A DNA stretch of 64,000 bases from assembly GCF_964204645.1 (NCBI RefSeq), contig NC_134034.1:7638962-7702961 (forward strand), in the 5' to 3' direction. This document shows, one piece after another, positions 1 through 62,298 of this stretch. The position numbers and the translations under genes are program-made. Under the pieces are notes generated by a model, which did no database searches, was not told the DNA's origin, and worked only from the letters and a program-made list of their open reading frames with translations. This stretch comes from Tubulanus polymorphus (lineage: Eukaryota > Animalia > Nemertea). Position 1 is the stretch's first letter, and the number at the start of each line of letters is the position of its first letter.

Positions 1-2220
1 TGAAATAGGGTCTCATAAAAATGTTTTCTGCATTTTTCACGAAAGTTAAATCGGGAAAATTTCAATTTTTATCAGCCAATCAGGAAGTTGTGTCTTCCCT
101 GTGATTGGTTTATCTGAAAATATCAGCAGCTGTTCACGTGAATTATCGCGATTTCATTACTGGCGCTTTTGCGCATGACGTCATGTATCAACACGCGACA
201 ATACTTCCGCGTTCGCTACGTGTTCGCTGATTGGCCCATTTACTGGGAAATTCCACAGAAGCCTAATGTGGTTTGTTACAAGCGCTGTGATTGGCCCGAC
301 CCGATTCTGGCATGGCTTTAGCTTAGTGGGTTCGAATCCCTTGACGGGTGAAGATGATGGATCCTATCAATATCTATTGAAACAAATAAGTTTCCCGGTT
401 GGGCAGCCGCGGATATCTACCGGAAGTGTTCTGGTTCGATATTTCGAGGTTTCTTTGAATTTTGGAGTGATATTGAAATCCGGTAAATACCAGCGGTAGA
501 TTGTGAAAACCCATTGCATGATATTTGTATTACTTAGAAAAGCGTCGGGCCCGCGCCGGGAGTTTTCGTGATTCAAGTAGCACAATAGCCTACTTCTTCG
601 TGTTCGTCCACCTCAATTTTCATTCCGCCGATTTCTGACACGGCTCTGTCCCCGTCGGCGCTGTGATTGGACTTTCGTACCACCAAAATTTTTTATTTCT
701 ATATCAGGGAGGTCTGGAGAATAAAAAAGTCAAAATTTGGATATCACATAGGCCTGATTTCATCGAATAAGTCGACCATGGTCGTTACGTTTCCGTACTT
801 ATTACCACCTAAAACCGTCTGAACAATTTTGTCACAACCAACATTTCGTTTACAGAAATCAGGGTTCACGTGAACCCGCGGTATCGTCTACTGTTTTACT
901 TCCGGGTTTTATTTTAAGATTTAAAATTGTATTTCAAGATCGATTTCTATGAAATCTTTAGTTGATTTGGTGTTTGGGAGGAATTTTTATTTGCTCTACA
1001 GAAAATTCATCCTTGACAATTGCGCAAGGTTCGCGAAAAAAATGGTTTTACCAAATCGGGTGTATGATCTTGATATGCTAATTAGCCATGTGCCCGAATT
1101 GCAAATTCAATCAAATTTTATTCTGCCAAAAAAATGTTAAATACAATTCGCTTTCCGAGAGTTAATGGTATGCTGCATGGAACAAAGTTGTTTTGAGATG
1201 GGTCTTGAAGCTATTGAGGTCGAGAGATAACCATCTAGATAGTTCGTGAGAGTTCCAAAGTTTTGAAGAGGCTTCAAGGTAATGTCTTGATATTTGGTTT
1301 ATACGTCTATCTACCCTAGACACATCTTCAGGCTAAAAACTGGCCCTGTCAGATTCAAGATGGCCGACTGGCAGCCATTGTTGTTCGCCAAAATCAGCAC
1401 TTTTTACACATTTTTGAAGTTTTCGAGGGAAATTTTGAAGACACTTTTATCAATAACCTTGATCATTCGTATATATTTGTTTCCCCCGAGGGCCCATCGG
1501 CATGAGAAAAATTGGGTCGATCGGACTCAAGATGGCCGTACTGTAACCTTTTTTGTTCCCAAAAATGTCAATTTTGGCCTGAATTCTGAGTACTGTAGCT
1601 TTCTAATGGTGTGCCATGTTTCATTGCAATTTGTAATGGGTATTCTTTGGAAAGGGATCTTTTATATCCGAGAGGGTATTTTTGACCAGGCAATTATGAC
1701 GCACTTGGCGGCCATCTTGGAGTCATCAGTACTCATTCGTAGGTGGAAAAAAGTTTTTCCACATCATAATTGATACTTAAGCATATTTTGCTACTATAAT
1801 TAATTGGAAAGTTGTAGCTCATGACATGTTCTATGATCGAGGTGAGTTTCAAGCTCATTGGTTTTTGTTTATGGCCACCAGGGGGCGTTGAACAATACAA
1901 TAACTTAGTATATCTATATTACATTCATATGCATATTTTGCTACCACAATCAATTGGAAAGTTGTAGCTCATGACATGGTCTATGATCTTGGTGAGTTTC
2001 AAGCTCATTGGTTTTTGTATATGGCCACCAGGGGCGTTGAACAATACAATAACTTAGTATTTCTATATTACATTCGTTCCTGCTGTCTGTGTTAACACAC
2101 GATTTTACTATGTAAATGATATCGAGCAGGGAGTGTATATCGATAAATATAACCCACAGATTACATCATTTATAAAAAGCAAATCTGACAGGCTGGCCAT
2201 TGTGCCCCTTGGGGCTCTTG
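1..2220 (+). mobile_element. Non-autonomous Helentron-type element (HINE family A), copy 1; 5' end outside window
   Basis: Near-identical in reverse to 31513-33894 and 50216-51943. The 3' end has subterminal GGCTGGCC, the hairpin GCCCC-TT-GGGGC, then TCTTG followed by TTT. Contains ~150-bp internal tandem repeats (about 1780-2075). Confidence 0.8.
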
Positions 2221-2549
2221 TTTATTCTTTTAATTGCCTTCTGTTTCTTATCATTATCTTTATCAAAATAATCTTCACCTAAAATATCATTATTCATATT
2301 TCTAATATGACTTTTAGATTTTAAATGTTCTTTATAATATATTTTGTTACTGAATGATTGATTACATGTACAACATTTATATATTTCTTTTTCATTCTTT
2401 AATTCATCTAATTTAGTTTCTAATATATCATCTTTATATTCTAATTTCAATTTATTTTCTAAATGCGTTTTAGTTTTATTGTGTCTTGCTTTTTGAGATT
2501 CATCTATATTGATTTTACTTCTCGGGCAGTAGTACTTATTTGCTTCCAT
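2221..2549 (-). pseudogene. C2H2-type zinc-finger region (N-terminal part of a Polinton PolB), truncated
   Basis: YKCCTCNQSFSNKIYYKEHLKSKSH. The last 18 aa of the ORF-track protein are read-through into HINE sequence. Confidence 0.65.
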
Positions 2550-12752: not shown

Positions 12753-13954
12753 TGAATCATAATCTTTTGATATGTATATGTTTCTAATGTATAATGTTCA
12801 ATATTATCACCTTTTGTATTTGGTAATATAATCAAATCAAATACATTATTATTTTAATGTTATTATCTCTTTCTATTTTTGGGATATTTTTAATTCTAAC
12901 AGGATACCTATCTATCTTATAATCATTTTCAAATGGTATATAATTTGTTACTCTAAACTATGTGTAATATCTTCTGTTGGATGCAAGCAACTAATAATTG
13001 ACCATAAAAACATTTATTATCTTCATTTTGTACATTTATAACGGCATTAGTTTTAAATGGTAGTTTAATATAACTTGATGCTTCAATATCTGGTTCTTTA
13101 TAATATGATAAATTATTTTCATCTTTTGGCTTCGATTTACTCAATTTATTTTATTACATTTTGTATTATAAACATGTAAAGTCATAAATATTATTTCATC
13201 AAATATAAAACCAGATCCTTCAAAATATTTCTCTTCTATTTTATTTTTTACTTCATAATAACATTTATCTAATCTATCATCGATATGCTGTTTAGATACA
13301 ATATGTTGTGAATGAGAATTTATATTTTATATTGGTTTATCTTCAGATTTCATAAATTTAACTTTAGTAGATATACTTATTTTTGGGTATTCTATATCTG
13401 TAATTATCTTTATTATACTTCATATTTTCTAAATGTAACTTATTTTCTTCCAATGTTTTACCTTTATAAAATCTAAACTCAATAGCTGCTGGACCAATAT
13501 CAATTTTAAATGCTTCAGTTATTTAAATATCTTTTTTTATCATCTAATGATTTAATATAATTTCTAACATCTTCCATGTATGGTCTTTATCTGTTTAATT
13601 TATTTTCTATTCTTTTAATTTTCCTTTGTTTTTTGATTAATATCATTATCAAAATAATTTTCACCTAAAATATTTTTATTTAAGTTTCTATTATGAATTT
13701 TACATTTTAAATGATGTTTATGATGTTTATAATATCTTTTGTTACTGAATGATTGGTTACATGTAACACATTTATAAAATTCTCTTTCATTCTTTAATTC
13801 TTCTAATTTAGTTTTTAATATATCATTATTATATTCTAATTTTAATTTATTTTCTGAGATTTGTTATTATTATGTCTTGCTTTTTGAGATTTATTTATAT
13901 ATACATATACATATATATATATAATATATATATATATATATACATATATATATA

Positions 13955-15902: not shown

Positions 15903-17236
15903 AAAGCCATTCAGAATGATGGGAATTGTAGTAAATTGAAATACCGATACATAAAATAAAATGCATTGACAGATTCGAACCTAATATGCAAACACTGTGT
16001 TAACGTCAAATATGATTCAGCTTTGAAACCGAACATACGCGGACACACAATCAACAAATATGAATTTATTTGACCAGGCATTTATTTTGGCATTCAAACA
16101 TCATGATACTTTATTATCACCATGCTTAAAGATCTGTCCTATTAAGAACTCATCTTAATCACCTGCTGAGTCGATAGATTGAGTGAATTTACAGATAAGA
16201 ACGTATTATGATTTAGAATAGATTTAAGAAGTTAATGTTTTTATTGAAATATTTGAATAAATACATATATTGTAGTGTAGATTCAATCAATAAATTATGA
16301 ATTGATTTGGTCTGGGTTTCCGGCTGATGATGATTTTGGCTTTTATGGATTACAAATTCTATAGTGATAAAAAAATTGATACCTGCAACATGTGTGTAAA
16401 TCAAACCTATTCCACTAGTTGCGTGTGTTTCCTAATAAACGGGAGAGTCACTCTTGATCTGAGTAATTAGAAAAATAATGTTCATTTAGTTATAGAAATT
16501 CATTGCCTTTTTGAAAATTCTGTGCATGTAATAATATTTGTTCTTTCCTAATTTTTATTACTGTATGAACCAATGATTTGATTTGTAAATATGTAATAAA
16601 AGAAATTTGAATTTGAATTAAATTTGAACATGAGAATCAGGCATAACTTGTGTTTTTTGAACTTGTCTTTTGTTAACAGTTCCAGAGTTTCAATTACAAT
16701 CAAATTCAAATTGGCTAAAAAAAAGTACAAAGGACTAAATGAAATGAACCGTTTAGTTACTGCAAACCTATTCCAGTGTTATGTCGATCGTGTTAAATCA
16801 CTTTGCTTGAGTGGAAAGAATCAGATCTTCTATGGTGCAACATCGGTCGAAGATAGATATCTTGGTGTTGACTGCCCATGTAACTTCATGCGTTTGACAT
16901 TGGAATCAGCATCATACCCATTTGAACTGCAAAATATTCATACAACATGAAAAACCGACAGTACATGTATACAGTAATCAAAATATCACCGATGTTGGAT
17001 ATTTGAATGAACGCTTCGGTGAATGATAGGCTTATTTTAGCATTCTAAAGCAGGAAATAATAAGCGCAATCAATAGGCCCTAATCCCATTGGAACAATTG
17101 TATAGGCCTAATGCGTCCAGCTGTACCGTACACTTATCGGTCAAGAATGGAGAAATCGGTATACCAAACCTACGAACAGCAAAATGTGCAGGCCTACAAT
17201 GATTTCTGGTATACAAGTCATGACCATATGAACGTT

Positions 17237-17329
17237 AGTAATAGGAAGATGTGGGTTTCGTACCAGAGGACGAGAGGACGAGACACCACTCATCACCACA
17301 AGTAATTTTTTTTCCTAATAAATGGGAGA
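17237..17329 (+). repeat. Polinton left TIR
   Basis: AGTAATAGGAAGATGTGGGTTTCGTACCAGAGGACGAGAGGACGAGACACCACTCATCAC...TAAATGGGAGA, inverted at 38337-38426 with 2 substitutions and one 3-bp indel. Confidence 0.92.
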
Positions 17330-17654
17330 GAATGAACACCAGTCAGAAAATAATAATGTTAATAAAAATCAATATTATTGCCAATATTGTAAAAAATACG
17401 TCGATACATCTAATAAAACACGACATGAAAAAACTGCAAATCATATAAAAAATGTAATAGATTTTGAAACTCCAGAAAATTCCAATGAAAGAAAAGAAAG
17501 ATTAGAAAATATGAATGTGGATGAAATAAAATGTGAAGTTTGTAATGAATTTATAGTAAAAAGGAATTATAATAGACATCTCGAATCACAAAAACACCAT
17601 CAAAATTTGAGTAATAATGTTTTAGGAAAAGATTATTTTGATGATAAACCTCAA
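17322..17654 (+). pseudogene. Two C2H2-type zinc fingers, probable N-terminus of the Polinton PolB, cut by a HINE
   Basis: YYCQYCKKYV...RHEKTANH and IKCEVCNEFI...RHLESQKH. The ATG lies inside the TIR. Confidence 0.7.
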
Positions 17655-18957
<1,303 letters not shown>

Positions 18958-19011
18958 AAAAAGTAAAAAAAAACCACTTCAAAAACTAAATCCATTTCAA
19001 ATAAACCTTAC

Positions 19012-22000
19012 ATGGAAAATGTTAGAAATTATATTGATTCACTAGAAATAAAAGATACAATTGAAATTTTAGAAACATTACGTAGTAAAATTGGTCCTGC
19101 AGCTATTATATTTAGATTTTTTAAAGGTACAACAATAGAAGATTATAGTAAATTTGATGAAATAATAGAAAAAATACTAGATTTGATAACAGATGTTGAA
19201 TATCCAAAAATTAGTATCTCTGGGAAAGTAAGTTTTTTAGTCAGAAGCTAAAATGGATTATAATATTCAAACACTCTCTGAAGAAATAATTTCAAAAACA
19301 CAAATAAAAGAGAAGTTAGAAAAAATATTTAATGAATTTAAACGTCATATTGAAGAAAGATATTTTGAGGGTTCTGGCTTAACATTGAATGAAATTATAT
19401 TTTTAGATTTAAATGTTTATAATACAAAAAATAAAACATCAAAAAGTAATAAAATGTTTAAAAAGGATTCAAACTTTACAACAGAAAAGGAGGATATTAA
19501 AGGATCATCTTATATTAAATTACCATTTACAACAAAAGTAGTAATAAATGTTCAAAATGAAGATAATAAATGTTTTCTGTGGGCAATTATTAGTTGCTAA
19601 CATCCAACAGAAGATATTACACATAGTTTTAGAATAACAAATTACCGGAAATATGAAACATTATATAAAATTGATCAATATCCAGTAACTATAAAAATAA
19701 TTTCTAAAATAGAAAAAGTTAATAATTTAAAAATAAATGTATTCGAATTAATGCAATTACCAAAGACAAAAGGTGAATATATTAAAGATTATACATTGGA
19801 AGCTTTATATTTAACAGAATATTATGATGATGAAAATGCTATAGATTTGTTATATTACAAAACAGATGAAAATGAACATTATATGTGGTTAAAACAAATT
19901 GATTTATTCTTTAGAACAGAAAGTGATCATCATCGTAAAATTTATCTATGTAGAAAATTTTTATCTAAATTTACGACTGAGAATACATTATTAAAACATA
20001 AAGAATTATGTGATAATAAAGATTTTTGCAAATTAATAATGCCAACAGAAAAAGATTATAAATTGAAATTTACTAATCATAAATTTAAGAATATTGTTCC
20101 ATTTGTAATTTATGGGGATTTTGAATCGTTAAATAAAGAATTAACCGATCAAGATAGAAAAGAAATATATAACAAAAAGCAATTATTAAAATCAATGGAT
20201 AAAGGAAATGAATTAAATGAAGACACAATACAAGACCCACCAATTATAAACACAATTAAAAAAGTTCATCAAAGAGCTGCTGCTTATGGAATTTATATAA
20301 AATCAAATTATCCCGAATTATATGAAAGTCAATATATTTCTTTTAGAGGTGAAAATGTAGTTAATGATTTTTGTGACAAAATGATTGAATTAGAGAGTGA
20401 TTTTGCAAAATTATTAAACAAAAATAAAAGAATAGTTATGACAAAAGATGAAATTGATTTTAATTATGCAACTCATTGTTGTTATTGTGAAAAACGTTTT
20501 TATTCATTTGATAAAAAAGTTAGAGATCATGATCATTTAAATTCAAAATATCGTGTAGCTGCTCATGAAGATTGCAATTTACAAGCTAAGAAAGTTAATT
20601 TCGTACCAATATTATTTCATAATTTATCAGGCTATGATACCCATCTATTTATAAAACAATTATCGGGAAAATTGAGCGCAATTAATCAAGAAATAGAAGA
20701 ATATAATGCTATGAATGGTGTAAATGTAAGAAAATATGATTTTAAAATATTAGCTAAAACATCTGAAAATTATATTTCATTTCAATTTGGTTGCATTAGA
20801 TTTTTAGATTCTTATAGATTTCTAGCAAGTTCATTAGATAATTTATCAAAAAGTTTAGTTGATAATGATTTTATAATAACTCGATATTATTATCCAAATG
20901 ACCAAGATTTTAAATTATTGAGATATAAAGGCGCAATTCCTTATTCATTTTATAAAACACACAATGATTTTAATGTAACAGAATTATTAAAAGATCAATT
21001 TTATGATCAATTAAAAGAGGAGTATGTGAAAGACGAAGTGTTTAATAGAACGTTAAATATTTGGAACCATTTTAAGATGAAAAATCATGGCGAATTAGTT
21101 GATTTATATTTAAAATCAGATGTGATGATATTGGCTGACATATTTGAAAAATTTAGAGAAGTTAATTTGAATCATTTTAATGTTGATCCTTGTTATTGCT
21201 ACTCTAGTCCTGGTTTAACCTGGCAATGTGGTTTAAAATATACAAATGTAGAATTAGATTTATTAAAAGAACAAGATATGGTTTTATTATTTGAAAAATC
21301 AATTAGAGGTGGAATTAGTGGTGTTATGGGAGATAGGTATTTTAAAGCAAATGATGAATATAAATTATTATATATTGACGCCAATAATTTATATGGTTGG
21401 GCAATGATGCAACCTCAACCATATAAAAATTTTATATTAACAGAAGTTGAAAATGATGATAAAACCGATTGGGAAAGCGCAATTGCGAGTTTAAAAGATG
21501 AAGCACCAATTGGTTATTTCTTTGTAGTTGATTTAGAATATCCTGAAAATATAAAGTTTAAAACAAGAAACTTACCTTATTGCCCAGAACATTTAACCGT
21601 AGATGATAGTTATTTAAGTGAATACCAGAAGAAATAAAAACCGAAAGATCATGTTTTTACAGAAAAATTAATACTTACTCAAAATAATAAATACAATTAT
21701 ATTGTTCATTATAGAATGTTAAAATTTTATCTAAAACAAGGAATGAAATTAAAGAAAGTACATAGATATATTGAATTTAATCAATCGAAGTGGTTTGAAA
21801 AATATATAGATTTCAATACTCAACAGAGAACCATATCTAAAACAGATTTCGAAAAAGATTTTTTTAAATTAATGAACAATAGTTTTTACGGTAAAACATG
21901 CGAAAATATTAGAAATAGAAATGATATTGAATTAGTAAATAATTCTGAGAGATTAAGACACCTACAATCAAGTCCTAGACATTTAGGAAATGAAAGATTT

Positions 22001-23698
22001 GAAGATTATTTAACCGCAGTTAAATTAAAAAGAACGTCAATGAAATTTAATAAACCTATATTCATTGGTTCAACTGTTTTAGAGTATCAAAATTATTAAT
22101 GTATGATTTTTATTATAATGTTTTACAACCACTTTTTGGGGAAAAGCATATTGAAATATTATATTTTGATTCTGTAACAGCTGACACCCCAATATTATTA
22201 AAATGTAATGATAAAATATTGATAAGAAGAATTTCAGAAATAATTCCAAAACAAAATGAATGTTATATTTCATATGGTGAAAAAGAATTAATACAAATAA
22301 ATGGTTTAATGGATGTTTGGACAAGAAATGGATGGAAAAAATTAAAGAATATTATTAGGCATAAAACAAATAAGAAAATCTATTGAGTTAGAACTAAATT
22401 AGGGTTTGTAGATGTTACAGAAGATCATAGTTTAATTAAACGAAATGGTGATGAAATAAAACCAACTGATATAAAAATTGGAAATGAATTATTACATAAA
22501 AGATTTTTCCAAAGAATGAATCGTATGTCATTTGATGAAATTATTGATAATATTTATAATATAGAACCCGAAACATTAGAAGAAAAAGAATATTTCATCA
22601 AAGGATTTTTCATGGGTGATGGTTCAGCAGATGTGTATAAATATGTTTGGGGTAATACATATTGTTGGTATTTATGCAATCAAGACTTAAAATTATTAGA
22701 AAGAATTAAGAAATTCTGTGAAGAAGTTTATTCACTTAAAACATTTAGAATCATGGATGTTATGAAACCATCAGCAGTTTATAGAATACTTGTAAATAAT
22801 CCTAAAGATTTTGCTATAAAATATAATGATGAATTCTATATTCATGCAATAGTGAAAAGTAATACTTCAACAAAAGAAAAGATAGTTCCAGATTATGTAT
22901 TAAATGCAAAAAATAATTTAAGAAAATGGTTCTTCATTGGATTCTATGCAGCAGATGGTGCTAAAAAATTTACAAAGGATAAAAAGATAACCTTTGCACA
23001 GAAAGGAAAAGTTGCTATATCAGGGTTAAATATATTATGTAATTCATTAGGCTTCAATATGAATATTGGATTGATTAAATCTAAACCAAATTGCTTTCAT
23101 TTATTAAGCAAGCCACACAGAAAAAGATTTAACTGAAGAAGTTAAAGATTTATTTGAAATATATAACCCATCAGATTATGTTTATGATTTATCAACTGAA
23201 GATGGTACATTTAACTGTGGATTTCCATTAATTTGCTTCAATACTGATGCGTACATACTAAAAATCAAGACAAATGACATAACAAAAGACTTAAAAACAT
23301 TAAAACATCATTTTGATTTTAGCAATTATCCCAAAGATCATGAACTATTTAGCGATGATAATAAAAAGATTCCTGGTAAATTTAAAGATGAATTAGGGGG
23401 TGATGAAATGATTGAATTTGTTGGGATAAGAAGTAAAATGTATAGTAACTGAACAAAAGATCATGAAGCTAAAAAGTTAAAAGGAATAACAAAACATGTG
23501 GTTGATAAACATATAGAATTTCAAGATTATATAAAGTGTTTATATAACTCAATTGTAATGAAACATAAAATGAATTGTTTAAGATCAGAAGATCACGAGA
23601 TGTACATTAATGAAGTTGAAAAAACTAGTTTGAATCTATTTGATGATAAAAGGCATATTTTAGATGATGGTATAAAAACATTACCTTATGGCCATTAA
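19012..23698 (+). pseudogene. polB: Protein-primed family B DNA polymerase with OTU-like N-terminal domain, HNH insertion and an intein; several stops and frameshifts
   Basis: Exonuclease motifs VIYGDFES, FHNLSGYDTH, FLDSYRF, YLKSDV. Polymerase motifs YIDANNLYGWAM, FKLMNNSFYGKT, split YFD/TDA, GKFKDE, RSKMY, KLKGI, DDKR...TLPYGH. Confidence 0.95.
22171..23242 (+). mobile_element. Intein with LAGLIDADG homing endonuclease in PolB motif C (one stop, one frameshift)
   Basis: Block A SVTADTPILL, block B VDVTEDHSL, LAGLIDADG helices FIKGFFMGDGS and FFIGFYAADGA, block [13 protein letters not shown], block G ICFN followed by Thr. Removal restores LYFDTDAYI. Confidence 0.92.
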
Positions 23699-25063: not shown

Positions 25064-25818
25064 ATGGTAGAATTAAAAGAATATAGAATATTTGTTGATT
25101 CTAGAAAACTTACAATTATAAATCACATAATTTACTAGTACAATTAGATAGAGAATTTAAGAATTGTGTTGATTTAAAATTAGTAAATATAAGTTTATGT
25201 AATTCTTTTTATAATGTATCGGATAAAACTTTCGAACATAGAGGTTTTGCAATTCATATGAGAAATAAAAATAAATGGTTTTATCTAATGTTAAAACCAG
25301 GGTTATATAATTTAGAAACATTAGCCCAAGAAATTAATCGGAAAGCACAATTAAAACTTGAAAGTGAAGATAAATTTTCAATTAGATTTATAAAAAGTGA
25401 TAGTTCTGATAAAATTAAAATAAAGTTAGATGATGAAAGCAAACATGCATTTATGGTAAGGAAACCTTTAGCTAAACTGTTAGGAATTAAACCACAAACT
25501 GTTACAGGAAACGTAGACGGTAATTCAAATATAATACGTTATACACAATTTTATATTTATTGCAATTTAATCGACCCTACAAAAACATTTGAAGCAACTA
25601 AAGACATAACTTGTAATTCTAGTATATTAAATATTTTACCATTGAAGAATGTTAAACAATTTGGAACTCAAATAAATTATAATTTAGCTGAATGTGATTT
25701 TAAACCATGTATTCCTCAATTTAATAATTTTAAATTAGAAATAAGAAATCATAATGGATATTTAATTGATTTCAATAACTTTCCTGTAATATATGAATTA
25801 GTTATAAGATGTAAATAG
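25064..25818 (+). pseudogene. Minor capsid (penton, single jelly-roll) protein, one frameshift near the N-terminus
   Basis: IFVDSR, ISLCNSFYNV, PGLYNLETL, FYIYCNLI, LEIRNHNGYLIDFNNFPVIYELVI match the Polinton penton pattern. Confidence 0.7.
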
Positions 25819-28664: not shown

Positions 28665-28909
28665 GTAAAACACAATATCCGTGTTGACGCGATGAGGAGA
28701 GAATCCCACAATGATAATAAAAAGTCCGAAAATGAAACTTCGAGATAGTAGTTTATTCAACGTTTCGACTATATCCTAATAGTCATCTTCAGGAATAATT
28801 CTTTATTCCTGAAGATGACTATTAGGATATAGTCGAAACGTTGAATAAACTACTATCTCGAAGTTTCATTTTCGGACTTTTTATTATCATTGTGGGATTC
28901 TCTCCTCAT
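28659..28909. mobile_element. Penelope-type inverted pseudo-LTR remnant, 218-bp palindrome, with target duplication
   Basis: Perfect arms spanning 28692-28909. ATTATATTTTAAA is duplicated at 28646-28658 and 28908-28920. Confidence 0.7.
28802..28849 (+). ncRNA. Minimal type I hammerhead ribozyme (mirror copy on the minus strand at about 28752-28798)
   Basis: Stem I TTTATTC/GAATAAA, core CTGAAGA, stem II GACTAT/ATAGTC, GAAA, palindromic stem III ACGT. Confidence 0.65.
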
Positions 28910-30416: not shown

Positions 30417-33400
30417 ATGAGTGGGAGTTATATAAGTCCTTCTAAGATTTCTAGAATATCTAATGCTATTAAAGCAGAAAGATCACATCATATAATTACA
30501 CATAATCCTTCAAATATTAATCCCGATGAAACTTTATATGTTAGAATTCCTAGATTAACACAAAATACTTTTTATGTTCCAAATAGTATTTATTTATCAG
30601 CTGATATAAAAGTAATTGGTCATGATAATAATTATGTTGTCGATAATGTTGGGAGATATTTGATTAAAAAATTAACTATACAGATTGGTCCAGAAACAGT
30701 TTTACATGATTATAATTTATTTATGCATTATAAAGATTTATGGTTAACTAAATAAAATAGAAATAATATGATATTTCAGGGTATTCAATCGGAAAACCAT
30801 AATAAATTAAGATCTGAAGCCAATAATGCAGTAGTAATAATGCTGTAGATAATTTGATAAAAAAGATTTATGGAAGCAAATATAAAATTCCATTAGACTT
30901 TGAATTGATAAATAATAATGCACCTTTATATAAATATGTAATTCAAGAAGATATTATATTTGAGATAACATTTCCTGTAAATGAAATTGTATTATCTAGC
31001 GTTGTTAAAGATATGGGTTATAAATTATCAAATATATGTTTAGAATATGACACAGTAACTAATGAAAATATTGCTAGCACAATTCAAACTCAATACAATC
31101 AAGGATTTTCATTATTATATGATTATATTGATAAATTTAAAACTGTAACTATTAATGCAAATGATGAAATAATTAATGAGAATATTAACTTCCCAAGAAG
31201 ATCTATTAACGGTATATTAATATTTTTTACCATTGCAACATATTCTAATGGCGCAATAAATGTTGATAATTATTATAATGCTGAAATAACGCAAGTAGAA
31301 ATAACTATCGAAGGAATAGCAAATAAAATATTTTGTCAAGGAATGAGAATGATTGATCAATGGCCAGAAATTAGAAAACATTTTATGAATGAAAAAGTGA
31401 AATCATCTGAAAATTGTAATATTAATCAAATTGATTATTATACCGGTAATAAATATGCATTATGGTTAGATTTTAGAACAACAGAGAATAATTCATTACA
31501 TGGTTCTGGAAACAAGAGCCCCAAGGGGCACAATGGCCAGCCTGTCAGATTTGCTTTTTATGAATGATGTAATCTGTGGGTTATATTTATCAATATACAC
31601 TCCCTGCTCAATATCATTTACATAGTAAAATCGTGTGTTAACACAGACAGCAAGAACGAATGTAATATAGAAATACTAAGTTATTTGTATTGTTCAACGC
31701 CCCTGGTGGCCATATACAAAAACCAATGAGCTTGAAACTCACCAAGATCATAGACCATGTCATGGAGCTACAACTTTCCAATTGATTGTGGTAGCAAAAT
31801 ATCCATAGGTAAAAATGTAATATAGAAATACTAAGTTATTGTATTGTTCAACGCCCCCTGGTGGCCATAAACAAAAACCAATGAGCCTGGAACTCACCTC
31901 GATCATAGAACATGTCATGAGCTACAACTTTCCAATTGATTATGGTAGCAAAATATGTTTAAGTATCAATATGATGTGGAAAAACTTTTTTCCACCTACG
32001 AATGAGTACTCATGACCCCAAGATGGCCGCCAATTGCGTCATAATTGCCTGGTCAAAAATACCCTCTCGGATATAAAAGATTCCTTTCCAAAGAATACCC
32101 ATTACAAATTGCAATGAAAAATGGCACACCATTAGAAAGCTACAGGACTCAGAATTCAGGCCAAAATTGACATTTTTGGGAACAAAAAAGGTCAAGGACG
32201 GCCATCTTGAGTCCGATCGACCCAATTTTTCTCATGCCGATGGGCTCTTGGGGGATACAAATATATACGAATGATCAAGGTTATTGATAAAAGTGTCTTC
32301 AAAATTTCCCTCGAAAACTTCAAAAATGTGTAAAAAGTGATTTTGGCAAACAACAATGGCTGCCAGTCGGCCATCTTGAATCTGACAGGGCCAGTTTTTG
32401 GCCTGAAGATGTGTCTAGGGTAGATACACGTATAAACCAAATATCAAGACATTACCCTGAAGCGTCTTCAAAACTTTGGAACTCTCACGATTTATCTAGA
32501 TGGTTATCTCTCGACCTCAATAGCTTCAAGACCCATCTCAAAACAACTTTGTTCCATACAGCATACCATTAACTCTCGAAAGCGAATTGGATTTAGCATT
32601 TTTTTGGCAGAATAAAATTTGATTGAATTTGCAATTCGAGCACATGGCTAATTAGCATATCAAGGTCATACACCCGATTTGGTAAAACATATTTTTTCGC
32701 GAACCTTGCGCAATTGTCAAGGATGAATTTTCTGTAGAGCAAAAAAAATTCCTCCCAAACACCAAATCAACTAAAGATTTCATAGAAATCGATCTTGAAA
32801 TACAATTTCAAATCTTAAAATAAAACCCGGAAGTAAAACAGTAGACGATACCGCGGGTTCACGTGAACACCTGATTTCTGTAAACGAAATGTTGGTTGTG
32901 ACAAAATTGTTCAGACGGTTTTAGGTGGTAATTAGTACGGAAACGTAACGACCATGGTCGACTTATTCGATGAAATCAGGCCTATGTGATATCCAAATTT
33001 TGACTTTTTTATTCTCCAGACCTCCCCGATATAGAAATAAAAAATTTTGGTGGTACGAAAGTGCAATCACAGCGCCGACGGCGTCAGAGATCGGCGGAGT
33101 GAAAATTGAGGTGAACGAACACGAAGAAGTAGGCTATTGCGCTACTTGAATCGCGAAAACTCCTGGCGCGTTCCCGACGCTTTTGGTTGATTAAGTAATA
33201 CAAATATCATGCAATGGGTTTCCACAAAGGCACAATCTACCGCCGGTATTTACCAGATTTCAATATCACTCCAAAATTCAAAGAAACCTCGAAATATCGA
33301 ACCGGAACACTTCCGGTAGATATCCGCGGCTGCCCAACGGGGAAACTTATTTGTTTCAATAGATATTGATAGGATCCATCATCTTCACCCGTCAAGGGAT

Positions 33401-34038
33401 TCGAACCCACTAAGCTTAAGCCGTGCCAGAATCAGGTCGGGCCAATCACAGCGCTTGTAACAAACCACATTAGGCTTCTGTGGAATTTCCCGGTAAATGG
33501 GCCAATCAGCGAACACGTAGCGAACGCGGAAGTATTGTCGCGTGTTGATACATGATGCCATGCGCAAAAGCGCCAGTAATGAAATCACGATAATTCACGT
33601 GAACAGCTGCTGATATTTTCAGATAAACCAATCACAGAGAAGACACAACTTCCTGATTGGCTGATAAAAATTGAAATTTTCCCGATTTAACTTTCGTGAA
33701 AAATGCAGAAAACATTTTTATGAAACCCTATTTCAAAATTCTGCTCGCTACGATTCCGAGAATGGATTACGCTTAAATAAGTGATTTGTTCGAATATGCA
33801 CTCACTTGGTAAGCAAAAGAGCCTTTTGTGTGGAAACCATGTCATTTAAATTCGCTCCATTTGTATAGTAATAGGCTCAGCCTACGGCTGGCCTAAAAAA
33901 CTACAGAACACTAAAGATGGAAGACAATTATTCATGAAAAAGAAAAAAGGAAGCTTAAATTTTAAAATGCACATTTATATCATATCTGACGCACAATTAA
34001 ATATTGTAAATTCACAATTAGATAGTATTCAATATTAG
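30417..34038 (+). pseudogene. Major capsid protein (double jelly-roll), interrupted by HINE-A at 31513-33894
   Basis: HNPSNINPDETLYVRIP, YKIPLDF, LSNICLEYD, NINFPRRS, YALWLDFRT..NSLHGSG. The frame resumes after the HINE (KLQNTKDG...HIYIISDAQLNI...SIQY*). About 400 aa; the call rests on motifs and context. Confidence 0.75.
31513..33894 (-). mobile_element. HINE family A, complete copy 2
   Basis: Both ends present: 5' AGGCCAGCC-GTA-GGCTGAGCCT and 3' GGCTGGCC plus hairpin plus CTTG. Inserted into an A-run, and excision restores the capsid sequence. Confidence 0.88.
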
Positions 34039-34068: not shown

Positions 34069-35196
34069 ATGGGTGGTAAAAAAACTCGTAATACTAAAAA
34101 ACAATTTTTAAGAAATTTATATTACAACCCTGAGAGTTCGGTTGCTTATTCTTCTAACAAAAATATATGGCGTCAAGTAAAACAAGATAAATTAGATAAG
34201 ATAATCCCACAAAATTTAGTTAAATATAAAGAAATAAATGAATTTATGTTAGAACAACCAACATATACAACATATAAAAAAATTGTTAGAAAATATAAAA
34301 CACGTAAAACTATGGTAAGTTATGTAGATCAACAGTGGCAAGGAGATTTAATTGATATGAAAAATGTTAAGAAAGATAATGATGATTTTTGGTGGTTATT
34401 GAATATAATTGATATTTTTAGTCGTTATGTATGGAGTTTCCCACTTTATAGAAAAGATGCTGTACAAACATCAAATGTTTTAAGAAAATTTCTCTCGGAT
34501 GATGAACTAAAACCAGAAAAAATACAATTTGATGATGGAAAAGAATTTGATAATTCACTTGTTCATGAACTCTTAGACAATCATAATATTAAATATTTTT
34601 CAACAAAATCGGATAAAAAAGCAGCAGTTGTTGAACGATTTAATAGAACATTAAGAACAAGAATGTGGAAATATTTTACAGCAAATAATACTTTTAAATG
34701 GATTGATGTTTTACCAAAATTGATAGAAGGATATAATAATTCTTATCATTCTTCTATTGGAATGAAACCTATTGATGCTAGAAAACCTGAAAATGCTGAA
34801 ATTGTTTGGAATAATTTATATGGAGCATTTCTTGTAGATGATTTTGGTGAACCTAAATTTTAAGTTGGTCAAAATGTTAGAATTTCTAAGTATAAAAAGA
34901 TATTTGACAAAGGATACGATCGAAATTTTACTAGGGAAATATATAAAATAAAAAAGGTAATAACAACAAAACCATATGTCTATAAATTAGAAGATTTAGA
35001 TGGTGAAGAAGTTGATGGCTACTTTTACGAAGAAGAATTAAGTTTAACTACTGAAAATCTAGAACAAGAATGTAAAATTGAAAAAGTATTAAAAACAAAA
35101 ACTATCAAAAGAAAAAAATATTCTTTACTAAAATGGGTTGGATGGCCAGATAAATTTAATGACTGGATATTATCAAGTAAAATTAAAAATATATAA
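34069..35196 (+). pseudogene. Retroviral-like (rve) DDE integrase with C-terminal chromodomain, one in-frame stop at 34861
   Basis: YYNP, QWQGDLIDM, IDIFSRY, IQFDDGKEF, KAAVVERFNRTL, YNNSYHSSIGMKP. After the stop: VGQNVRIS...FDKGY...KWVGWPDKFNDWI. Confidence 0.93.
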
Positions 35197-35796
35197 ATGA
35201 ATAAGGAATTATTTATATTTGAGCCTCATAAAATGTTAATTTCTGGCGTAACAAATTGTGGAAAAACTTATTTTATATTAAATTTATTAGAAACTGTTTA
35301 TGAAAACTATTTTGATAATATAGTATTATTTTGTCCAACATATGAATTTAATCAAACTTATGATAGAAATATTACTAGAAATAATAAATTTATTATATTA
35401 GATCCTAAAACAGTAAAAGAAAATTTGGATAATTGTATAAAAATAGCAATTGATATTTATAAAGGATCAAATACATTATTTATCATAGATGATTGCGCAA
35501 ATTTACATGATTCAAAAGTTAGAGAAAGTGAGTTATGCTATTTAGCTTTTTCTGGCAGACATTTTGGGATAACAACTTGGGTTTTAAATCAAAAATATAA
35601 TTCAATTGTTAAAGACTTTAGAGAAAACATTAGATTTCTAGTTTTATTCTACAAAAAAGATAGAAAATCGATGAAAAATGCACTTGAGGAAAATGATATT
35701 ATTCCACATGATTTACATAATGAATATATGGATAAATTGAAAAATATTAAAAGATCAAAATTACTATTTAGATTACAACACCCATTTAAATATTAA
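35197..35796 (+). CDS. A32/FtsK-like genome packaging ATPase
   Basis: Walker A ISGVTNCGKT, Walker B LFIIDDC, GRHFGI and NQKY motifs. Confidence 0.9.
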   Translation: MNKELFIFEPHKMLISGVTNCGKTYFILNLLETVYENYFDNIVLFCPTYEFNQTYDRNITRNNKFIILDPKTVKENLDNCIKIAIDIYKGSNTLFIIDDCANLHDSKVRESELCYLAFSGRHFGITTWVLNQKYNSIVKDFRENIRFLVLFYKKDRKSMKNALEENDIIPHDLHNEYMDKLKNIKRSKLLFRLQHPFKY

Positions 35797-35804
35797 TTTA
35801 TTTA

Positions 35805-36070
35805 AATTCAACTAGCTTGTTAATCTAGTTGAATTCTAGTAACATCCTAGTTGAATTCTAGTTATTAGTAGTTGAAACAAAAATAAAATAAAATTCAACA
35901 ATATTTTAACTAGCTTGTTAATCTAGTATATTTTTAGTTACATTCTAGTTGAATTCTAGTTATTAGTAGTTGAAACAAAAATCAACTAAAATAAAAACAA
36001 CAATATTTCAACTAGCTTGTTAATCTAGTTGAATTCTAGTTACATTCCATTTTAGTTGAATTCTAGTTGC
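35805..36070. repeat. Intergenic tandem array of palindromic CTAG/GAATTC units
   Basis: About three ~100-bp units starting AACTAGCTTGTTAATCTAGT, with repeated TAGTTGAATTCTAGT. Confidence 0.85.
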
Positions 36071-38014: not shown

Positions 38015-38344
38015 TATTTAATCAACAATTTCTAAATCATGATGACCGTCTTCATTTTTTCCATGATAGATTATTTTAAATCCTTCTAAATCTTTTAATT
38101 CCTCTGTACTCAATGAAACCCATTTATCGGGTAAAAATACTTTAAATTCTCGCGATGTACTAACATTACAGTAACTTTAATTCGCTGATACTTTCTCTCC
38201 ATATTTAGTTTTTATCTTTTCTAATTTCAATATTTTATGTTCAATTTCTTTTGTAACATCAACTAACTTTTTTATTTCAAATTGTTTTTTTGCTGGTTTA
38301 ATTCTGTTATTTATTGTTGCTAAGAATGCTTTTCTATCTCCCAT
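38015..38344 (-). pseudogene. Small Polinton terminal ORF of unknown function, one stop
   Basis: ATG inside the right TIR. MGDRKAFLATIN...KTKYGEKV...FKVFLPDKW...GKNEDGHHDLEIVD, homologous to 2586-2933. Confidence 0.6.
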
Positions 38345-38426
38345 TTATTAGGAAAAAAAATTACTTGTGATGAGTGGTGTCTCGTCCTCTCGTCCTCTGG
38401 TATGAAACCCACATCTTCCTATAACT
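38337..38426 (-). repeat. Polinton right TIR
   Basis: Reverse complement of 17237-17329. Confidence 0.92.
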
Positions 38427-38549
38427 AACGTTTTGGATCTAGGTTTGACTATTAATGTCAGCAGGTCAGAGAAGGCCTGGCCAAATTTAATCACATGGCT
38501 CAAATCAATTGGCCTTTCTGTGTGTCAACACTTCACTGTATTTTTTTAA

Positions 38550-41939: not shown

Positions 41940-42783
41940 AATATATTAGCAAAATCAACTTTGGATATTATAGAACCATCTAGAATTATAAGAATAAGAA
42001 ATAATGAAAAAGAAAATGTTACCAGTACAGAAATAAATAGAAATAAAAGATCATTTCGTCTAAGAATTGATTATTTATTTGAAATAATCAAAAATAATCT
42101 AGAATCAGAAATGGAAGAGCATGGAAACCAGAAACATCAAGAAGAGACATTCAACCAATTGATAATGGTTCAAGTCAATTACAAGAAAGAAGTAATTTAG
42201 ATAAAGCGAGAGATACAGTTAATTACTTAGAAAAACAGATAAATAGTACTTTAGATACATCTCTTACTGGAACAAATCAAATGAAACTTTTATCAGAAAA
42301 AGGATTTCTTGGTTTAACTGAAGATTTAGAAACATTTCCTGAATAAGCGCGTAGAGAAATTAAAGGTGTACAAATATCAGCTGATAAAATTGCGCATGAT
42401 AAAAGTATAAGAGATCAAAAAATTATGTATTTGGAAAACGAAAAAAACGATAAAAATGAAGAAATAGAACAATTAAAGTCTGATTTAGCTCAACAAGTAA
42501 TTGATGAAATTGAATATAGCCTAAAAGAATTACGTTTAGAAAAAGAAATTAATGATTTAAAAGATAGTAAAAGTTAGAAGTACAGAAAAAAGAAAAATAT
42601 ATATTAATGGAAAAATATGCTAATAATATTAAAAGATTAAAAGTTATCTTTTAAAGATTTGTTGATAAAACCAGATTCAAAACTATCATTAAAAGATAGA
42701 ATAAAATTATTATTTAAATTAGAAGGTATAACAATTCTTTCAATTCTAACAGCTGTAACTATGGTATTTACAACAATTGGTTA
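41940..42783 (+). mobile_element. Polinton remnant C (coiled-coil protein fragment)
   Basis: Nucleotide-level similarity to 29650-30075 (GATAAAATTGCGCATGATAAAAGTATAAGAGAT; LKDRIKLLFKLEGITILS). Confidence 0.8.
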
Positions 42784-44369
42784 AGAAACAATAAATTACA
42801 CAATTTGAACTTTATTGTTCGGGATTATAAGAGTAGGCAACATATTCCACTCTCGAGAATTACAAGACGCTCATCTAAAATGTAATAAAGAGTCCATTAA
42901 TTATAAATCAAAAATTTAATAAAGGACCAATGGTCCAGTGGCTCGCCAAACTGGTGTGAAGTAAAATCTGTCACGTAGGCTACTGGTATGCAAAAAATCA
43001 TTTCATTGAAAATTTAACAAGAAAAAGATATACAAAAAGGGACTCAATTTTGATCAGTGTGAACTTTTAATGATAACTGACTTTTGACGAGAATGAAATC
43101 TTTGAAAAATTGATTATGGGCCCCTTGTCTGAACAAATGTTCATAATTGTAATACATCCCTTGAATGATATAAAACAACTAAAACTATGAGTGACCCGAT
43201 AAGATACGGTACCAACTTGGTGAGAGACTGGGTTTCATCGGAAGTTTTAACTGATACATACAGGCAGCGAACACGAGAGTATAAGGCTATATTGCCTCCG
43301 CGACTGACTGTACGCGACTGTTTTCAACGCGAACGCTCCACTGTGCCCCAGTTAACAAACTAATACAAATAATCAGGCTCCAAAACTGATCGCTAATGCG
43401 AACGTTAATGAAATGACTTCAATTAATGTTGATAAAACATGTATTCCAGTCGTGTAAATATCAGACTCATCTCTAAAAATTCGATGCTATCAGTGAATCA
43501 GCCGTGTGGCGAACACGGAAGTAAATTTCCACATTTTGAAACCACATTCAGATTTCTTGATGCAACGTTACCTTACGCACGGGATATCAAAACTAGATGA
43601 ATCATTGAATACATCGCACACAATAAATCGTTATATCATACGCCTTGAATATCAGTATTTGCGCTAGAAATGATGAATATCAACAATCGCGCCGCAATTT
43701 TGTTTGTGAAATCACGCGCACCAGCTGATCCATCTCGTTCAATGTCATGACGTCATGATGGATGTCAAAACCGGGTCAACACAAATTTTATAGAACCAAG
43801 ATTTTGAGGTGATTTGTCTTTGAAAGCCCATAACTACCGAAACAAGCGTCGGATCTTGGTGATATAATGTTCTTCTGACGCAAATAGCATTGAATTTTCA
43901 CGTGTCTTATTTTGGACATTTAAAGATGCTGCATAACAAAACGTGCTCGAATAAATTCGAATTTTTGAAACATTTTTGGTAAATTTCTCAAAAAATATGA
44001 AACCCATACCTTCAACTTTGCGCACCATAAAGAAAAACCAATTACGAAATATATTTTTGCTTAATCCGTTCAATTCGCCCATTAGCAGTGAAATTACAGG
44101 CTAATGAAATTGCGTTCGAGTGCGCTAAAAATAGCTTCAAGCGTAGTGTATTAAGCATACGAATGATTATCGATCGGCCAGACCGTTGACATTGGCTTAC
44201 CAGATTACCGGTGGTATAGAAAAACATTTATAGATTATTTTTCGCGTGATGATATAGATACCATATTAAATAAAGGACCAATGGCCCAGAAGCTCACCGA
44301 CATGATATTCTGAGAAGCAAAAGGAAGAAAGCGAAATATGCTTTCAAAGAAGTAATAATAAGAAGTAAA

Positions 44370-52432: not shown

Positions 52433-53460
52433 TCATTGTGCAGTAACAATTGGACCCAACGTGGACAGTGAGCCTAACTGTCCAGAAACGTCCTTCAAAT
52501 AAAATGACGAGAAGGTAGATGGAGACGTCCAGAAGGCTGAACGACAAACCTGTTCCAAGGAAGCCCCCATGAATAATGACCAGGAAGTGGCTAATGCCCT
52601 CACCTGATGAGAATGTATCCCGAGCGGAGCCTGGGCCCCCTGAGAATGCAGAGTTTCTTTAATTAAAGATACAATCCATCTAGCGATTGTGTCCCTTGAG
52701 ATATCTCTCTTATCCCCTTGTCGGAGAGGAATAAAGAGCCTCTCCCTTTCTTGTCTGTGGGGAAGTGTCCTCTCTAGGTACTCCTTTAAAGCTCTTACTG
52801 GACAGAGCGACGTATCAGGAAGGTCGTGAGATACCCTTTGCGTCAAAGCCTCAATCTTCCAAGATCTGGCTGCTACGGAAGCCTTTTGATTCTTGGCAAT
52901 GAAACTAAGACCAGGCCTTAAAATGACAAACCTATCTTGTGGACCAAAGGAAATATGACCCGGACGCATCGATAAAGCATGAACCTCTGAACGCCTCGCG
53001 GCCATCGCTAAGAACAGTAAGAACACCGTTTTCTTAGATAAGTCTGACAGGGTAGTATTGCGGATAGGCTCGAAGGGAGTGATCATAAGTGCTCTAAGAA
53101 CCACTGTTAAGTCCCATGGCGGGATATCTGAAACCTGTTTGGGTCTCTTAACCCCAAAACCTGATATCAATTGAGCTATTTTCACATCCTCCGTCACTAC
53201 AGGGACGCCCGCTGAACGAAAAGTATGCCCTATTGCTGATCTGTAGCCTTTAATGGTTACAACCTGTCTATTCTTCTCTTCGAACAGGAAATAGAAAAAA
53301 TCTATTAACTCTGACACAGAGGGGTGGAGAGAATCCACCGCTCTCCTTTTACACCAATCGGAGTAACATTTGGAATTTTACAATGCTCCAGTAGAGGGAC
53401 GTTTGGATTCCACGATAAATCTGGCTGCCCCCGAAGAAATTCCTTGGGTTGAAAGCTGTC
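52433..53460 (-). pseudogene. DIRS tyrosine recombinase (with SAM-like N-terminal domain), one stop near the start
   Basis: TIKGYRSAI, PPWDL..VL, AARRSEVHAL, LCPVRAL..Y, HSHQVRALATS, FW.S.STF..FY. Confidence 0.9.
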
Positions 53461-55416
53461 GCTTGACAATGGCCAGGCGTGTAGATTTAATTGGAATTGA
53501 TTTGGGTGTAACTTGAATCGTCCCTGGGACAGTAACCCGGGGTAATTGGGCAGAGTGCGAGGGAAGTCCACCAGTAGATGAAGGAGTCTGACGAACCATG
53601 TCTGAGTCGGCCAACAGGGAGCCACTAAGACGACTTGACAGTTGACTGCCCCCTCTATCTTCTCCAACACTCAATTGAGTAGGGGAGTGGGGGAAAGGCA
53701 TAAGCTAGCAGGTTGTCCCAACTCAGAGATAGAGCGTCCACCCCCACGCCAAGTCGTCTTGAAATGGGGACACAAACACCGGACACCTCGTGTTGAAGCG
53801 AGTGGCAAACAGGTCCACGTTCGGACTTCCCATCAGGGCCCGGACTTGATTGGCTACCCTGACTGCCAATGTCCACTCGGTGGCTACTGGCTTGTCTTGT
53901 CGGCCACCACATTCAGGCTGCCGGCCAGGTGGGATACCGAAAGAATCATCCCTTGAGCCTGGACCCAGGTCAGAATCTGAGCTGCTAAGTTGGATAATGT
54001 TGGGGACCTGGTCCCCCCCTGGTTGAGCAAATAAGCCTTTACTGTGGAGTTGTCCGTTGACAGCCACACATGATGACCCGCTAACCTCCTTTTGAAGTGT
54101 TTGAAGGCCTTTTGAACCGCTAACAGTTCCAGGTGATTTATGTGGAGATGAGCTTCTGCTCGAGACCAGTTCCCAGCTTTCTGAAAACCTTCTACATGTG
54201 CTCCCCAGCCCTGATGGCTGGCATCCGTGAATAGATGAATCGGGGCCTTCAATGGTGCTAGGGAGGTGCCTCTTGTCAAGTTCTGCGCGAGAGTCCACCA
54301 CTCGAGGTCGGGGATTAGGTTCACCGCTGGTACCGGCAATAAGGTATCCCACTCTTCCCCTGCCAATCTCCAAGCTTGCTTCCAGAATCTTTGAAGAGAA
54401 CGGCTGTGTAAACGACCGAGCGGAACTACGAGTGCAACGGAACTCATCTCGCCCAAAACCTGGGACCAGGACCGAGCCGATCTAGGCGCCCCCGTTAGGA
54501 GACCGAGAACTGCCTCCCTCAGCTTCTGAACTCTGGCCTGTGCTGGTCTGACTAAAGCCTGCGTCAGGTCGAAGTGCATACCTAGGTACGTGAACCTTTG
54601 AGAGGGGGTCAACTGGGACTTCTCTAAATTCACAATGAAACCTAATTGACGGATCAAGGCCAGTGTCTTGTCTAAGGCTTCCTTGCACTCTGCTTTCGAA
54701 TTTGCCACAACCAGCCAATCGTCCAGGTAACAGAAAATGCGAACTCTCTTCGACTGAAGGTGTTTCTGAACCCTTTTGACAAGTTTGGTGTAGACCCAAG
54801 GGGCTGAACTCAGGCCGAAGGGCAGAGACCGAAATTGGTATGTTCTTCCCCTCCAATGAACTCTTAAATACTTTCTTGAGTTCCTGTGTATTGGTACTTG
54901 TAGGTATGCATCCTTCAGATCTATGGATGCCGCCCAATGGCCTGGCTCCAGCCCCTGAATCACCTCCTTGGGTGTTGTTAGCTTGAATTTTGGGGCTATG
55001 ATATAACGATTTAGAGCTGACAGATCTATTACCGTCCTTAAGCCCCCAGATGATTTTGGGACGGTGAAAATTCTTGAATACCATCCCGGGTATCCTAGAG
55101 GGATTTCTTCCAGCGATCTTTTTAAAATCATCTCGTTGATCGCTGGCATAACGTGGGACTCCTGCCCCCACTTTGGCCTCATTTCCACCGGCTGATGAGA
55201 TAGATGCGGTTTGTGAACGAATTTCAGTCAGTATCCTTTGGAAACAATCTTTGTAGCCCAAGTGTCGCCAAATTTTGCTAGCCAGTGGGAAGAAGCGTCT
55301 TGAAGGCAAGAGCCCACTGGTCTGACATCTTCAACGGGTACCTGTGTTGGCGCGGCCACGAAAGGGTCGATTGAAGCCCCTACGTAATCTAGCCCTACCC
55401 CTTTGGGGATTGTCAC
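53305..55416 (-). pseudogene. DIRS pol: reverse transcriptase, RNase H and methyltransferase-like domain, disrupted
   Basis: IDLKDAY, LPFGLSSAP, YLDDW, FTDAS..GWG, HINHLEL, TDNST, NVVAD, VDLFAT, AYAFPP, VAPCWPTQTWF. Confidence 0.93.
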
Positions 55417-57150: not shown

Positions 57151-57774
57151 GTTAAACCCTAAAATAAGCTGAAATGAAGGGTTAATTATTGATACGATTT
57201 TTAGTACAGATTATTAATTTCGTGAATGATGAGACAGAAATCAATTACGTTGAATGATAATTTTTAAATATATACGGCGGGAGGAGCCGCTAAGAAAACA
57301 GCACGGCGCTCCCGCGAAACCGGAAGTAGAAAACCGGTGGCAAAATGTTGAAATGCGCATAGATTAAAAACGATCTCACCCGAGGTTCGACTTCTATTCC
57401 GAGATCAATCACTCTTATGTCTGTTTCTTATATCAATTAGAACGGATGTCCGATCCAACACGAAGAATTTTAACCGATTTACGAGCACTGCCGAAACACG
57501 TTCTCTAGAGAACAAGCGCCAAGCAAAAAGATGATGGCGTCTCACCAGATGGCGCTATGTTACGGCGCCCCTACCAAAAGTCGATTCGGGTGTTATCTGC
57601 CTAGCCAAAAGCAATATGGCTATAGTGTATTTTCCCAGGGAATGCATTCGAAGTAAATACAAGATAGCCGGGCTCCAACGATTGCTAACGTAAGGGCATA
57701 AAAATGACGGGTTCAATTGATGACACTTAATGCCATCTTTAATTACTTAAGATTAGTTCTCAGCGTTGATCAAA

Positions 57775-62220: not shown

Positions 62221-62298
62221 CTTCTCCAACTGCCCAACATTCGAAGTCTTGGCAAGCAAGACCAATTCAGGATTTTGCTTTCTAGTCATCTATTAGCT

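Follow-up and report, generated by a model that had tools for sequence, protein, structure and literature searches.

A decayed intein in motif C of a Polinton DNA polymerase in the Tubulanus polymorphus assembly, of a lineage likely derived from giant viruses and likely spreading by homing

Described inteins of family B polymerases and nuclease inserts of Polintons

The closest described counterparts of the insert reported here are the pol-c inteins in the family B DNA polymerases (PolB) of Nucleocytoviricota (Mimivirus, phycodnaviruses and HaV01) and archaea, which in the passages describing them also sit at D/TD (the slash marks the insertion point). For Mimivirus, the relevant part of Ogata et al. 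(PMC549080) gives this site as YGD/TDS and considers homing between such distant PolBs implausible. Nuclease domains have also been described inside the protein-primed PolB (pPolB) of Polintons, as HNH/VSR inserts that a section of Krupovic et al. 2024 (PMC11071308) suggests to stem from intein invasions. The presumed source of these inserts is Jeong et al., and the words intein, LAGLIDADG, homing and Hint are absent from the main text of Jeong et al. 2023. For the nuclear inteins of fungi and Anaeramoeba, both viral carriers and intragenomic movement are proposed in the part of PMC10710043 that concerns them, and inteins of animal-infecting viruses, the invertebrate iridoviruses, are already published, going by a title cited in PMC5784728. 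Passages of two reviews (PMC5784728, PMC8529194) state that metazoan genomes are free of inteins, argue from this absence for antimicrobial intein inhibitors, and place the Hedgehog Hint domain of animals in the same Hint fold family. No Polinton intein was found described in the full-text literature searched (main texts, with subscription papers mostly outside the scope), and the intein passages of PMC12220804, PMC13768754, PMC3671162, PMC9939771 and PMC5718144 hold no case of a Polinton polymerase.

The present study examined a stretch of 64,000 nucleotides from the Tubulanus polymorphus assembly GCF_964204645.1 (contig NC_134034.1, positions 7,638,962 to 7,702,961; hereafter the window, in whose coordinates all positions are given). 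Our main reading, to which we assign a probability of roughly 0.8, is that it contains a decayed intein in motif C of a Polinton pPolB, and that this intein belongs to a lineage likely derived from giant viruses and likely spreading by homing. The intein type and the site class are known already, and the carrier gene is viral or transposon-borne, not cellular; for the host-protein class and the genomic setting we found no description, and sequence comparisons give apparent signs of ongoing homing. A chromosomal, multi-copy intein in what is likely an animal qualifies the rule of intein-free metazoa, and the presence of occupied beside empty alleles in the same genomes makes the question of why animals lack inteins testable. 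The insert is also the first splicing-domain evidence we found for inteins invading protein-primed polymerases, and may serve as a molecular tag tying Polintons to giant viruses. A jump from PF00136-type to PF03175-type polymerases would be larger than the one doubted in the relevant part of Ogata et al.

Like the pol-c inteins, the window insert combines Ser1, a terminal Asn and a +1 Thr with a LAGLIDADG domain, at best identities of 38-45%. Unlike them, it resides in a protein-primed polymerase (PF03175, not PF00136), and its carrier is an integrated, multi-copy element of about 17 kb. The flanks of pPolB inteins (YFD, YMD, YLD, SSD and ASD) have drifted relative to the viral YGD. The HNH/VSR inserts likewise place a nuclease domain inside a Polinton polymerase, but they are described without a splicing domain, whereas the window insert, a polymorphic one located in motif C, possesses the full set of splicing blocks. 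Iridoviruses are, to our knowledge, large viruses without known germline inheritance, and carry their inteins in other host proteins. The fungal and Anaeramoeba inteins occupy cellular genes of microbial eukaryotes, whereas here a transposon-virus gene with many dispersed targets is occupied in a likely animal.

The Polinton and its interrupted polymerase gene

The features of the element are the following:

17231..17236, plus strand: left target-site duplication AACGTT, 6 bp
17237..17329, plus strand: left terminal inverted repeat, starting AGT, with a 95% inverted match to the right end
17322..22170, plus strand: pPolB N-extein, with a zinc-finger start, exonuclease and motifs A and B, ending YFD
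17655..18966, no strand: secondary 1.3-kb insertion in the polymerase gene, containing an (ACAG)n microsatellite
22171..23242, plus strand: intein, with Ser1, block B TEDH, two LAGLIDADG helices, block F VYD and a terminal Asn
23243..23698, plus strand: pPolB C-extein, starting with the +1 Thr (TDAY), with a stop at 23450
31510..33899, no strand: secondary insertion of a host repeat that also occurs at 1-2223, 38.6-39.5 kb and 50.2-51.9 kb
34069..35196, plus strand: retroviral-type integrase with chromodomain, with a stop inside (rve 41.8 bits, cut-off 32.6)
35197..35796, plus strand: A32-type packaging ATPase (Pox_A32 49 bits, cut-off 22.8)
38337..38426, minus strand: right terminal inverted repeat, ending ACT
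38427..38432, plus strand: right target-site duplication AACGTT

Polintons end in inverted repeats of the form AG...CT and are flanked by a 6-bp target duplication. The definition of Polintons (Mavericks) in the part of Jeong et al. concerned is a protein-primed PolB plus a retroviral-type integrase. The interval 17237-38426 holds a pPolB and an rve integrase together with an A32-type ATPase, AGT...ACT ends and a 6-bp duplication, and is a Polinton of full length (21.2 kb, or about 17 kb minus later insertions), cleanly integrated and with short terminal repeats of about 93 bp. The Chromo match within the integrase, at 18.8 bits, is under its cut-off. Polintons also encode a double jelly-roll major capsid protein and a penton protein. 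An open reading frame at 25105..25818 (plus strand) is, by resemblance, possibly a minor capsid protein, and gave no family match at cut-off in profile searches; a broken one at 30417..31509 (plus strand), which we take by resemblance to be a possible major capsid protein, gave no significant family match and a single-sequence fold with a pLDDT of 31. Searching viral contigs with the capsid candidate returned 17 pattern matches, none confirmed. A maturation protease is common, not universal, in Polintons, and no Pfam match to the adenovirus type was obtained among the 22 window ORFs scanned, which excluded short broken pieces. Rfam gave no match within the window.

The polymerase gene spans 17322 to 23698, its start codon lying inside the left terminal repeat. 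The N-extein matches PF03175 (56.7 bits), was also aligned by tblastn with the relatives P0154 and P0156, and has an endonuclease-VII/HNH-type insert in its exonuclease (PF02945 is matched in relatives). The gene is broken by stops at 19598, 21635 and 23450, by frame changes near 19240 and 22082, and by the 1.3-kb insertion, which reads of run X5 skip, joining 17654 to 18966.

The polymerase frame reads ...HIEILYFD up to 22170, where it gives way at 22171 to SVTADTP, followed in order by VDVTEDHS, KGFFMGDG, IGFYAADG and YVYDLST...GFPLICFN, with the last base at 23242; the extein then resumes with TDAYILKI, placing Thr at +1. The insert is 1,072 bases long, a length not divisible by 3. KGFFMGDG and IGFYAADG are two LAGLIDADG-type helices with acidic ends, and TEDH and VYD are shared with all six relatives compared. 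The insert exceeds the cut-offs of TIGR01445 (intein_Nterm; 32.9 bits, cut-off 24.5) and LAGLIDADG_3 (26.6 bits, cut-off 22.5) and falls under that of the Pfam family Intein_splicing (PF14890; 21.4 bits, cut-off 35.8), which the intact relatives P0002 (42.4) and P0015 (37.7) pass. In a sequence comparison with solved structures, PI-PkoII, an intein endonuclease, matched best (E 1.6e-6). Judged by Ser1, Asn and +1 Thr, the TxxH motif, the block F Asp and the Hint profile, 22171..23242 is a LAGLIDADG-type intein, and its position between Asp and Thr of motif C (YFD/T) is the equivalent of the pol-c site. The sequence-only reading had described motif C as split at the Mimivirus PolB site by an intein with all splicing blocks and two LAGLIDADG helices, and had proposed searches against Hint and LAGLIDADG profiles; translation and profiles bear this out in each respect, with PF14890 alone below cut-off for the window copy. 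A Hedgehog Hint or bacterial intein-like domain was considered as its identity and ruled out by the presence of the endonuclease and the splitting of motif C; Hedgehog proteins have no endonuclease and do not join two exteins.

The stop and the frameshift that had been read in the insert are both present, at 22384-22386 and between about 23100 and 23115; this intein copy is dead, as is its polymerase. Its penultimate residue, Phe, is found in one of 123 related inteins, 77 of which have Lys, 38 His and five Ser; the penultimate His is usual in class 1 inteins and dispensable. The residues 3' of the intein are TDA, not TDS, as they are in P0281, its closest intein relative.

Several further observations concern the element and its surroundings. 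A motif common to gene starts, consisting of a T run, a short spacer and ATAA-ATG, occurs at 17322, 24995 (minus strand), 25838, 26888, 30417, 36101 and 38344 (minus strand), with one such start in each terminal repeat. A loose, post hoc version of this pattern was found at 16 of 671 ATGs inside the element vs six of 1,784 outside, and 10 of those 16 open frames of at least 50 aa vs 61 of 655 others. The motif, which recalls the poxvirus late start motif TAAATG, may be an element-specific promoter. Between two Polinton ORFs (28692-28909), perfectly matching inverted arms of 107 bp enclose a loop of four bases, and a 98-bp unit is repeated three times in tandem from the ATPase to the next gene (35807-36068). 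Read depth indicates that high-copy repeats are dense around the element. Polymerase 5' parts of related Polintons (72-82% DNA identity) lie at 2220-2549 (minus strand), 12756-13900 (minus strand) and 42320-42788, and a further fragment is possible at about 48-50 kb, judged by low GC alone. Other neighbours are a tyrosine-recombinase (DIRS-like) retroelement with overlapping frames (52433-57210, minus strand), a second recombinase fragment (58351-58973, minus strand) and a piece of LINE-type reverse transcriptase (61610-62296). Mollusca (phylum known for 26) and Chordata are the most frequent phyla in the top Atlas clusters of the DIRS-like reverse transcriptase; among the six rows listed for this enzyme a further one is Cnidaria, and two are Euglenozoa, with three members each. 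No host gene was identified in the window; going by the flanking retroelements and the density of high-copy repeats, the host is likely an animal. A fungal or protist host, whose genome would be large and rich in repeats, is a less probable alternative, under which the new setting would extend to Polintons alone.

Relatives and likely origin of the intein

Searches with the middle of the window intein identified 12 proteins among 907 candidates, four of which are pPolBs with an intein at the same site. Used as a query, the intact P0001 intein yielded 1,295 matches; five of the 120 listed are pPolBs and nearly all of the rest are PF00136-type. A search of 50% representatives yielded 2,058 matches at E<=0.001, and among the 150 listed, 136 were new, the only pPolB-type additions being the fragments P0281 and P0317. 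In total, the intein is joined to a polymerase flank in nine pPolB records besides the window (P0001-4, P0015, P0028, P0029, P0200, which is locus L065, and P0281), P0317 being a fragment without flank. The seven full-length pPolB inteins measure 337-354 aa, and the endonuclease is present in all of them. Metagenome motif matches are in frame in 42 of 43 cases, and a pPolB extein was found at only L065 among 73 loci.

The P0001 intein is 63% identical to that of the window, and its structure was modelled with a pLDDT of 93 and a pTM of 0.92. The top solved matches of the model are the endonuclease-bearing inteins TliVMA, PI-PkoII, PhoVMA and PI-PfuI, and structures of I-DmoI are also matched. 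Among viral proteins with names, it resembles most the PolB inteins of a phycodnavirus, Pandoravirus, Marseillevirus and Megavirus. Hedgehog proteins do not appear among the best structural matches listed. A pattern search of viral contigs for relatives of the P0001 pPolB gave 57 matches, none confirmed.

The phylogeny of the intein was examined at two scales. Starting from 123 inteins, 14 were dropped (five from other sites, two mis-bounded and seven near-duplicates), leaving 109 rows for FastTree, and a 44-row set was analysed with IQ-TREE (LG+G4), rooted on three adjacent-site inteins and leaving out the archaeal pol-c inteins and P0011. In the 44-row tree the seven pPolB inteins are united in a single clade (100/100), which is nested within 34 PF00136-type inteins of the same site and groups with these, not with the adjacent-site inteins; this clade has no resolved sister group among the giant-virus inteins. 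The 109-row tree is concordant, except that P0011, a long-branch non-pPolB intein, falls beside the pPolB group. A topology with P0003 as sister to the other pPolB inteins survives an AU test (p 0.33), and the tree therefore neither dates nor polarises the jump of P0003.

The link to large viruses drawn in the sequence-only reading is consistent with this nesting among giant-virus-type PolB inteins; its picture of a single invasion gives way to an intein lineage that is already established in pPolBs of divergent sequence. The lineage therefore probably left a large virus long ago and then spread among Polintons, and a single ancient transfer out of a large DNA virus into a pPolB would be the simplest reading of the tree. 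The FNxGFPL end motif is common to the pPolB inteins and to 15 of 15 viral-contig matches; as all 15 have YGD-type flanks, it was rejected as a Polinton-specific mark.

Other arrangements were observed among the related inteins. P0013, P0016, P0018, P0025 and P0067 are giant-virus-type polymerases with double inteins in motif C or an intein at a second site, the double inteins being two residues apart (YGD/intein/TD/intein/S). The pol-c inteins at L022, L027, L041 and L044 are shortened to 251-277 aa, compared with about 360, and have probably lost the endonuclease. A related intein in P0023, among the top matches, lies within a topoisomerase/gyrase-type protein (PF00204, PF02518).

Occupied and empty polymerase genes

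An intact insert is predicted to excise itself from the polymerase protein by means of Ser1, the block B His, the block F Asp, Asn and the +1 Thr, which would rejoin the catalytic D-T-D motif of the polymerase. Once released, the endonuclease would, on this prediction, cleave intein-less polymerase genes at their empty site, and repair from an occupied copy would carry across the intein plus some flanking sequence. Homing could take place either between integrated copies or between replicating virus genomes; a transfer from giant virus to Polinton, and co-infection as its route, would complete this scheme.

The polymerases nearest to that of the window (P0153, P0154 and P0156; 72-74% identical) all lack the intein and read straight over the site as HIEIMYFD/TDSYILKI, so that the window flanks are contiguous with an intein-less polymerase, a check which the sequence-only reading had also proposed. 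The Atlas clusters closest to the window polymerase have Mucoromycota, Arthropoda and Porifera as their most frequent phyla. Among 118 newly listed relatives 110 are intein-less, one carries an intein and a few end early.

Both states also occur in raw reads of run X5, which has the same species label and of which about 12 in 100 were read. The empty allele is represented by 40 reads with 25 start points, which pass over the insert with a gap of exactly 1,072 bases and so, like the intein-less relatives, confirm its boundaries; another two joint rows comprise 32 and 11 reads. Depth is 221-252 in the intein and 319-588 in the polymerase, vs 5.5 and 6.2 in the two lowest bins, and occupied and empty alleles are therefore both multi-copy; taking the two lowest bins as single-copy gives, roughly, about 40 occupied copies. 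The suggestion that many Polinton copies could serve as targets thus agrees with the numerous occupied and empty copies that coexist in the reads. At 22384, 223 of 231 covering reads differ from the window, and the stop is therefore nearly private to the window copy. These data also bear on the suspicion, which the heavily broken state of the window copy invites, that the intein is an assembly chimera or stray giant-virus DNA in a decayed element. This is refuted, to the point that we give it practically no weight, by the over 200-fold depth of the intein in an independent run, its codon-exact site, a GC content (0.25) equal to that of the extein (0.24-0.26), and intact relatives in other data sets.

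Occupied and empty alleles coexist in two separate hosts. The second is represented by cluster P0015, which has 136 members, with listed contigs from 57 kb to 1.0 Mb, and probably represents many copies of one family within the genome of another eukaryote. Among the 15 members listed, seven are occupied by an intact intein, six are empty and two stop short of the site. Occupied and empty alleles differ by 9% before and 19% after the site within 50 residues of it, compared with 0-4% elsewhere. Of 1,121 extein columns, 10 show fixed differences, and every one of these lies within -6..+44 (nominal P 2e-11 for this clustering, in which columns are not independent). Extein diversity is 0.8% among occupied vs 2.9% among empty alleles, the latter being variable right at the insertion site as well. 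This signal of co-conversion comes from one family and 13 proteins, at the protein level; the pattern is that expected if the intein had come recently with a converted tract from another Polinton, although a swap bounded by crossovers, or escape of the empty alleles, could contribute to it. No donor of the converted flank was found, the best flank match being 75%.

It is also conceivable that the intein was retained since conditional splicing regulates the polymerase, the endonuclease being incidental. Its position in the catalytic motif would let splicing gate activity, and intact copies persist in the multi-copy P0015 family. That same family, however, holds occupied and empty states together, the 110 intein-less relatives do without such control, and no endonuclease-less pPolB intein occurs among the seven full-length ones, all of which makes this explanation very improbable.

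A stronger contender against spread by homing is one entry into an ancestral pPolB followed by vertical inheritance and, with homing ceased, only loss by deletion or recombination. Three pairs of the extein tree, window/P0001, P0002/P0015 and P0028/P0029, recur among the inteins, and within the polymerase class of the window the intein and extein identities run parallel (0.63/0.58, 0.66/0.68 and 0.77/0.82), which fits long co-descent. The extein tree, in which eight of 129 rows are occupied, needs eight changes vs a shuffled mean of 7.8; such counts are blind to gain vs loss, and the eight rows are enriched by searching with intein queries and are not a frequency. Against this, the nearest neighbours of every occupied row in that tree are empty, so that many precise losses would be needed, and P0015 is about 100% identical to the empty P0140 along the polymerase and 75% in the flank. 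P0003, which was excluded from the extein tree, shares 20-24% identity with the other pPolB-intein records in its extein and 43-49% in its intein, which is thus twice as conserved. Both acidic LAGLIDADG positions are retained in all seven inteins compared. Entry followed only by loss is therefore unlikely. The comparison of intein and extein trees proposed in the sequence-only reading accordingly cuts both ways: patchy occupancy and the mismatch of P0003 favour mobility, while the congruent pairs and parallel identities do not.

For the homing lineage, the best reading is that it has long resided in Polintons, being gained and lost repeatedly between closely related ones, and has made a distant jump at least once. 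A further-reaching proposal, possible and on balance doubtful, is that animal genomes hold true homing inteins, a giant-virus lineage that would act as a gene drive through germline Polintons while empty alleles escape. If true, empty copies on different chromosomes would be cut and converted by the intein, and its origin would record past replication of Polintons beside Nucleocytoviricota, in the manner of virophages.

The residues around the site vary among pPolBs of both states. The intein-bearing P0028 and P0029 lack the usual motif C Tyr (SSD/TDS and ASD/TDS), as do several empty relatives. At +1, Cys replaces Thr in many empty pPolBs (YMD/CDS in 25 rows and YTD/CDS in three), a state seen in no occupied row, and these are possible candidates for homing-resistant alleles.
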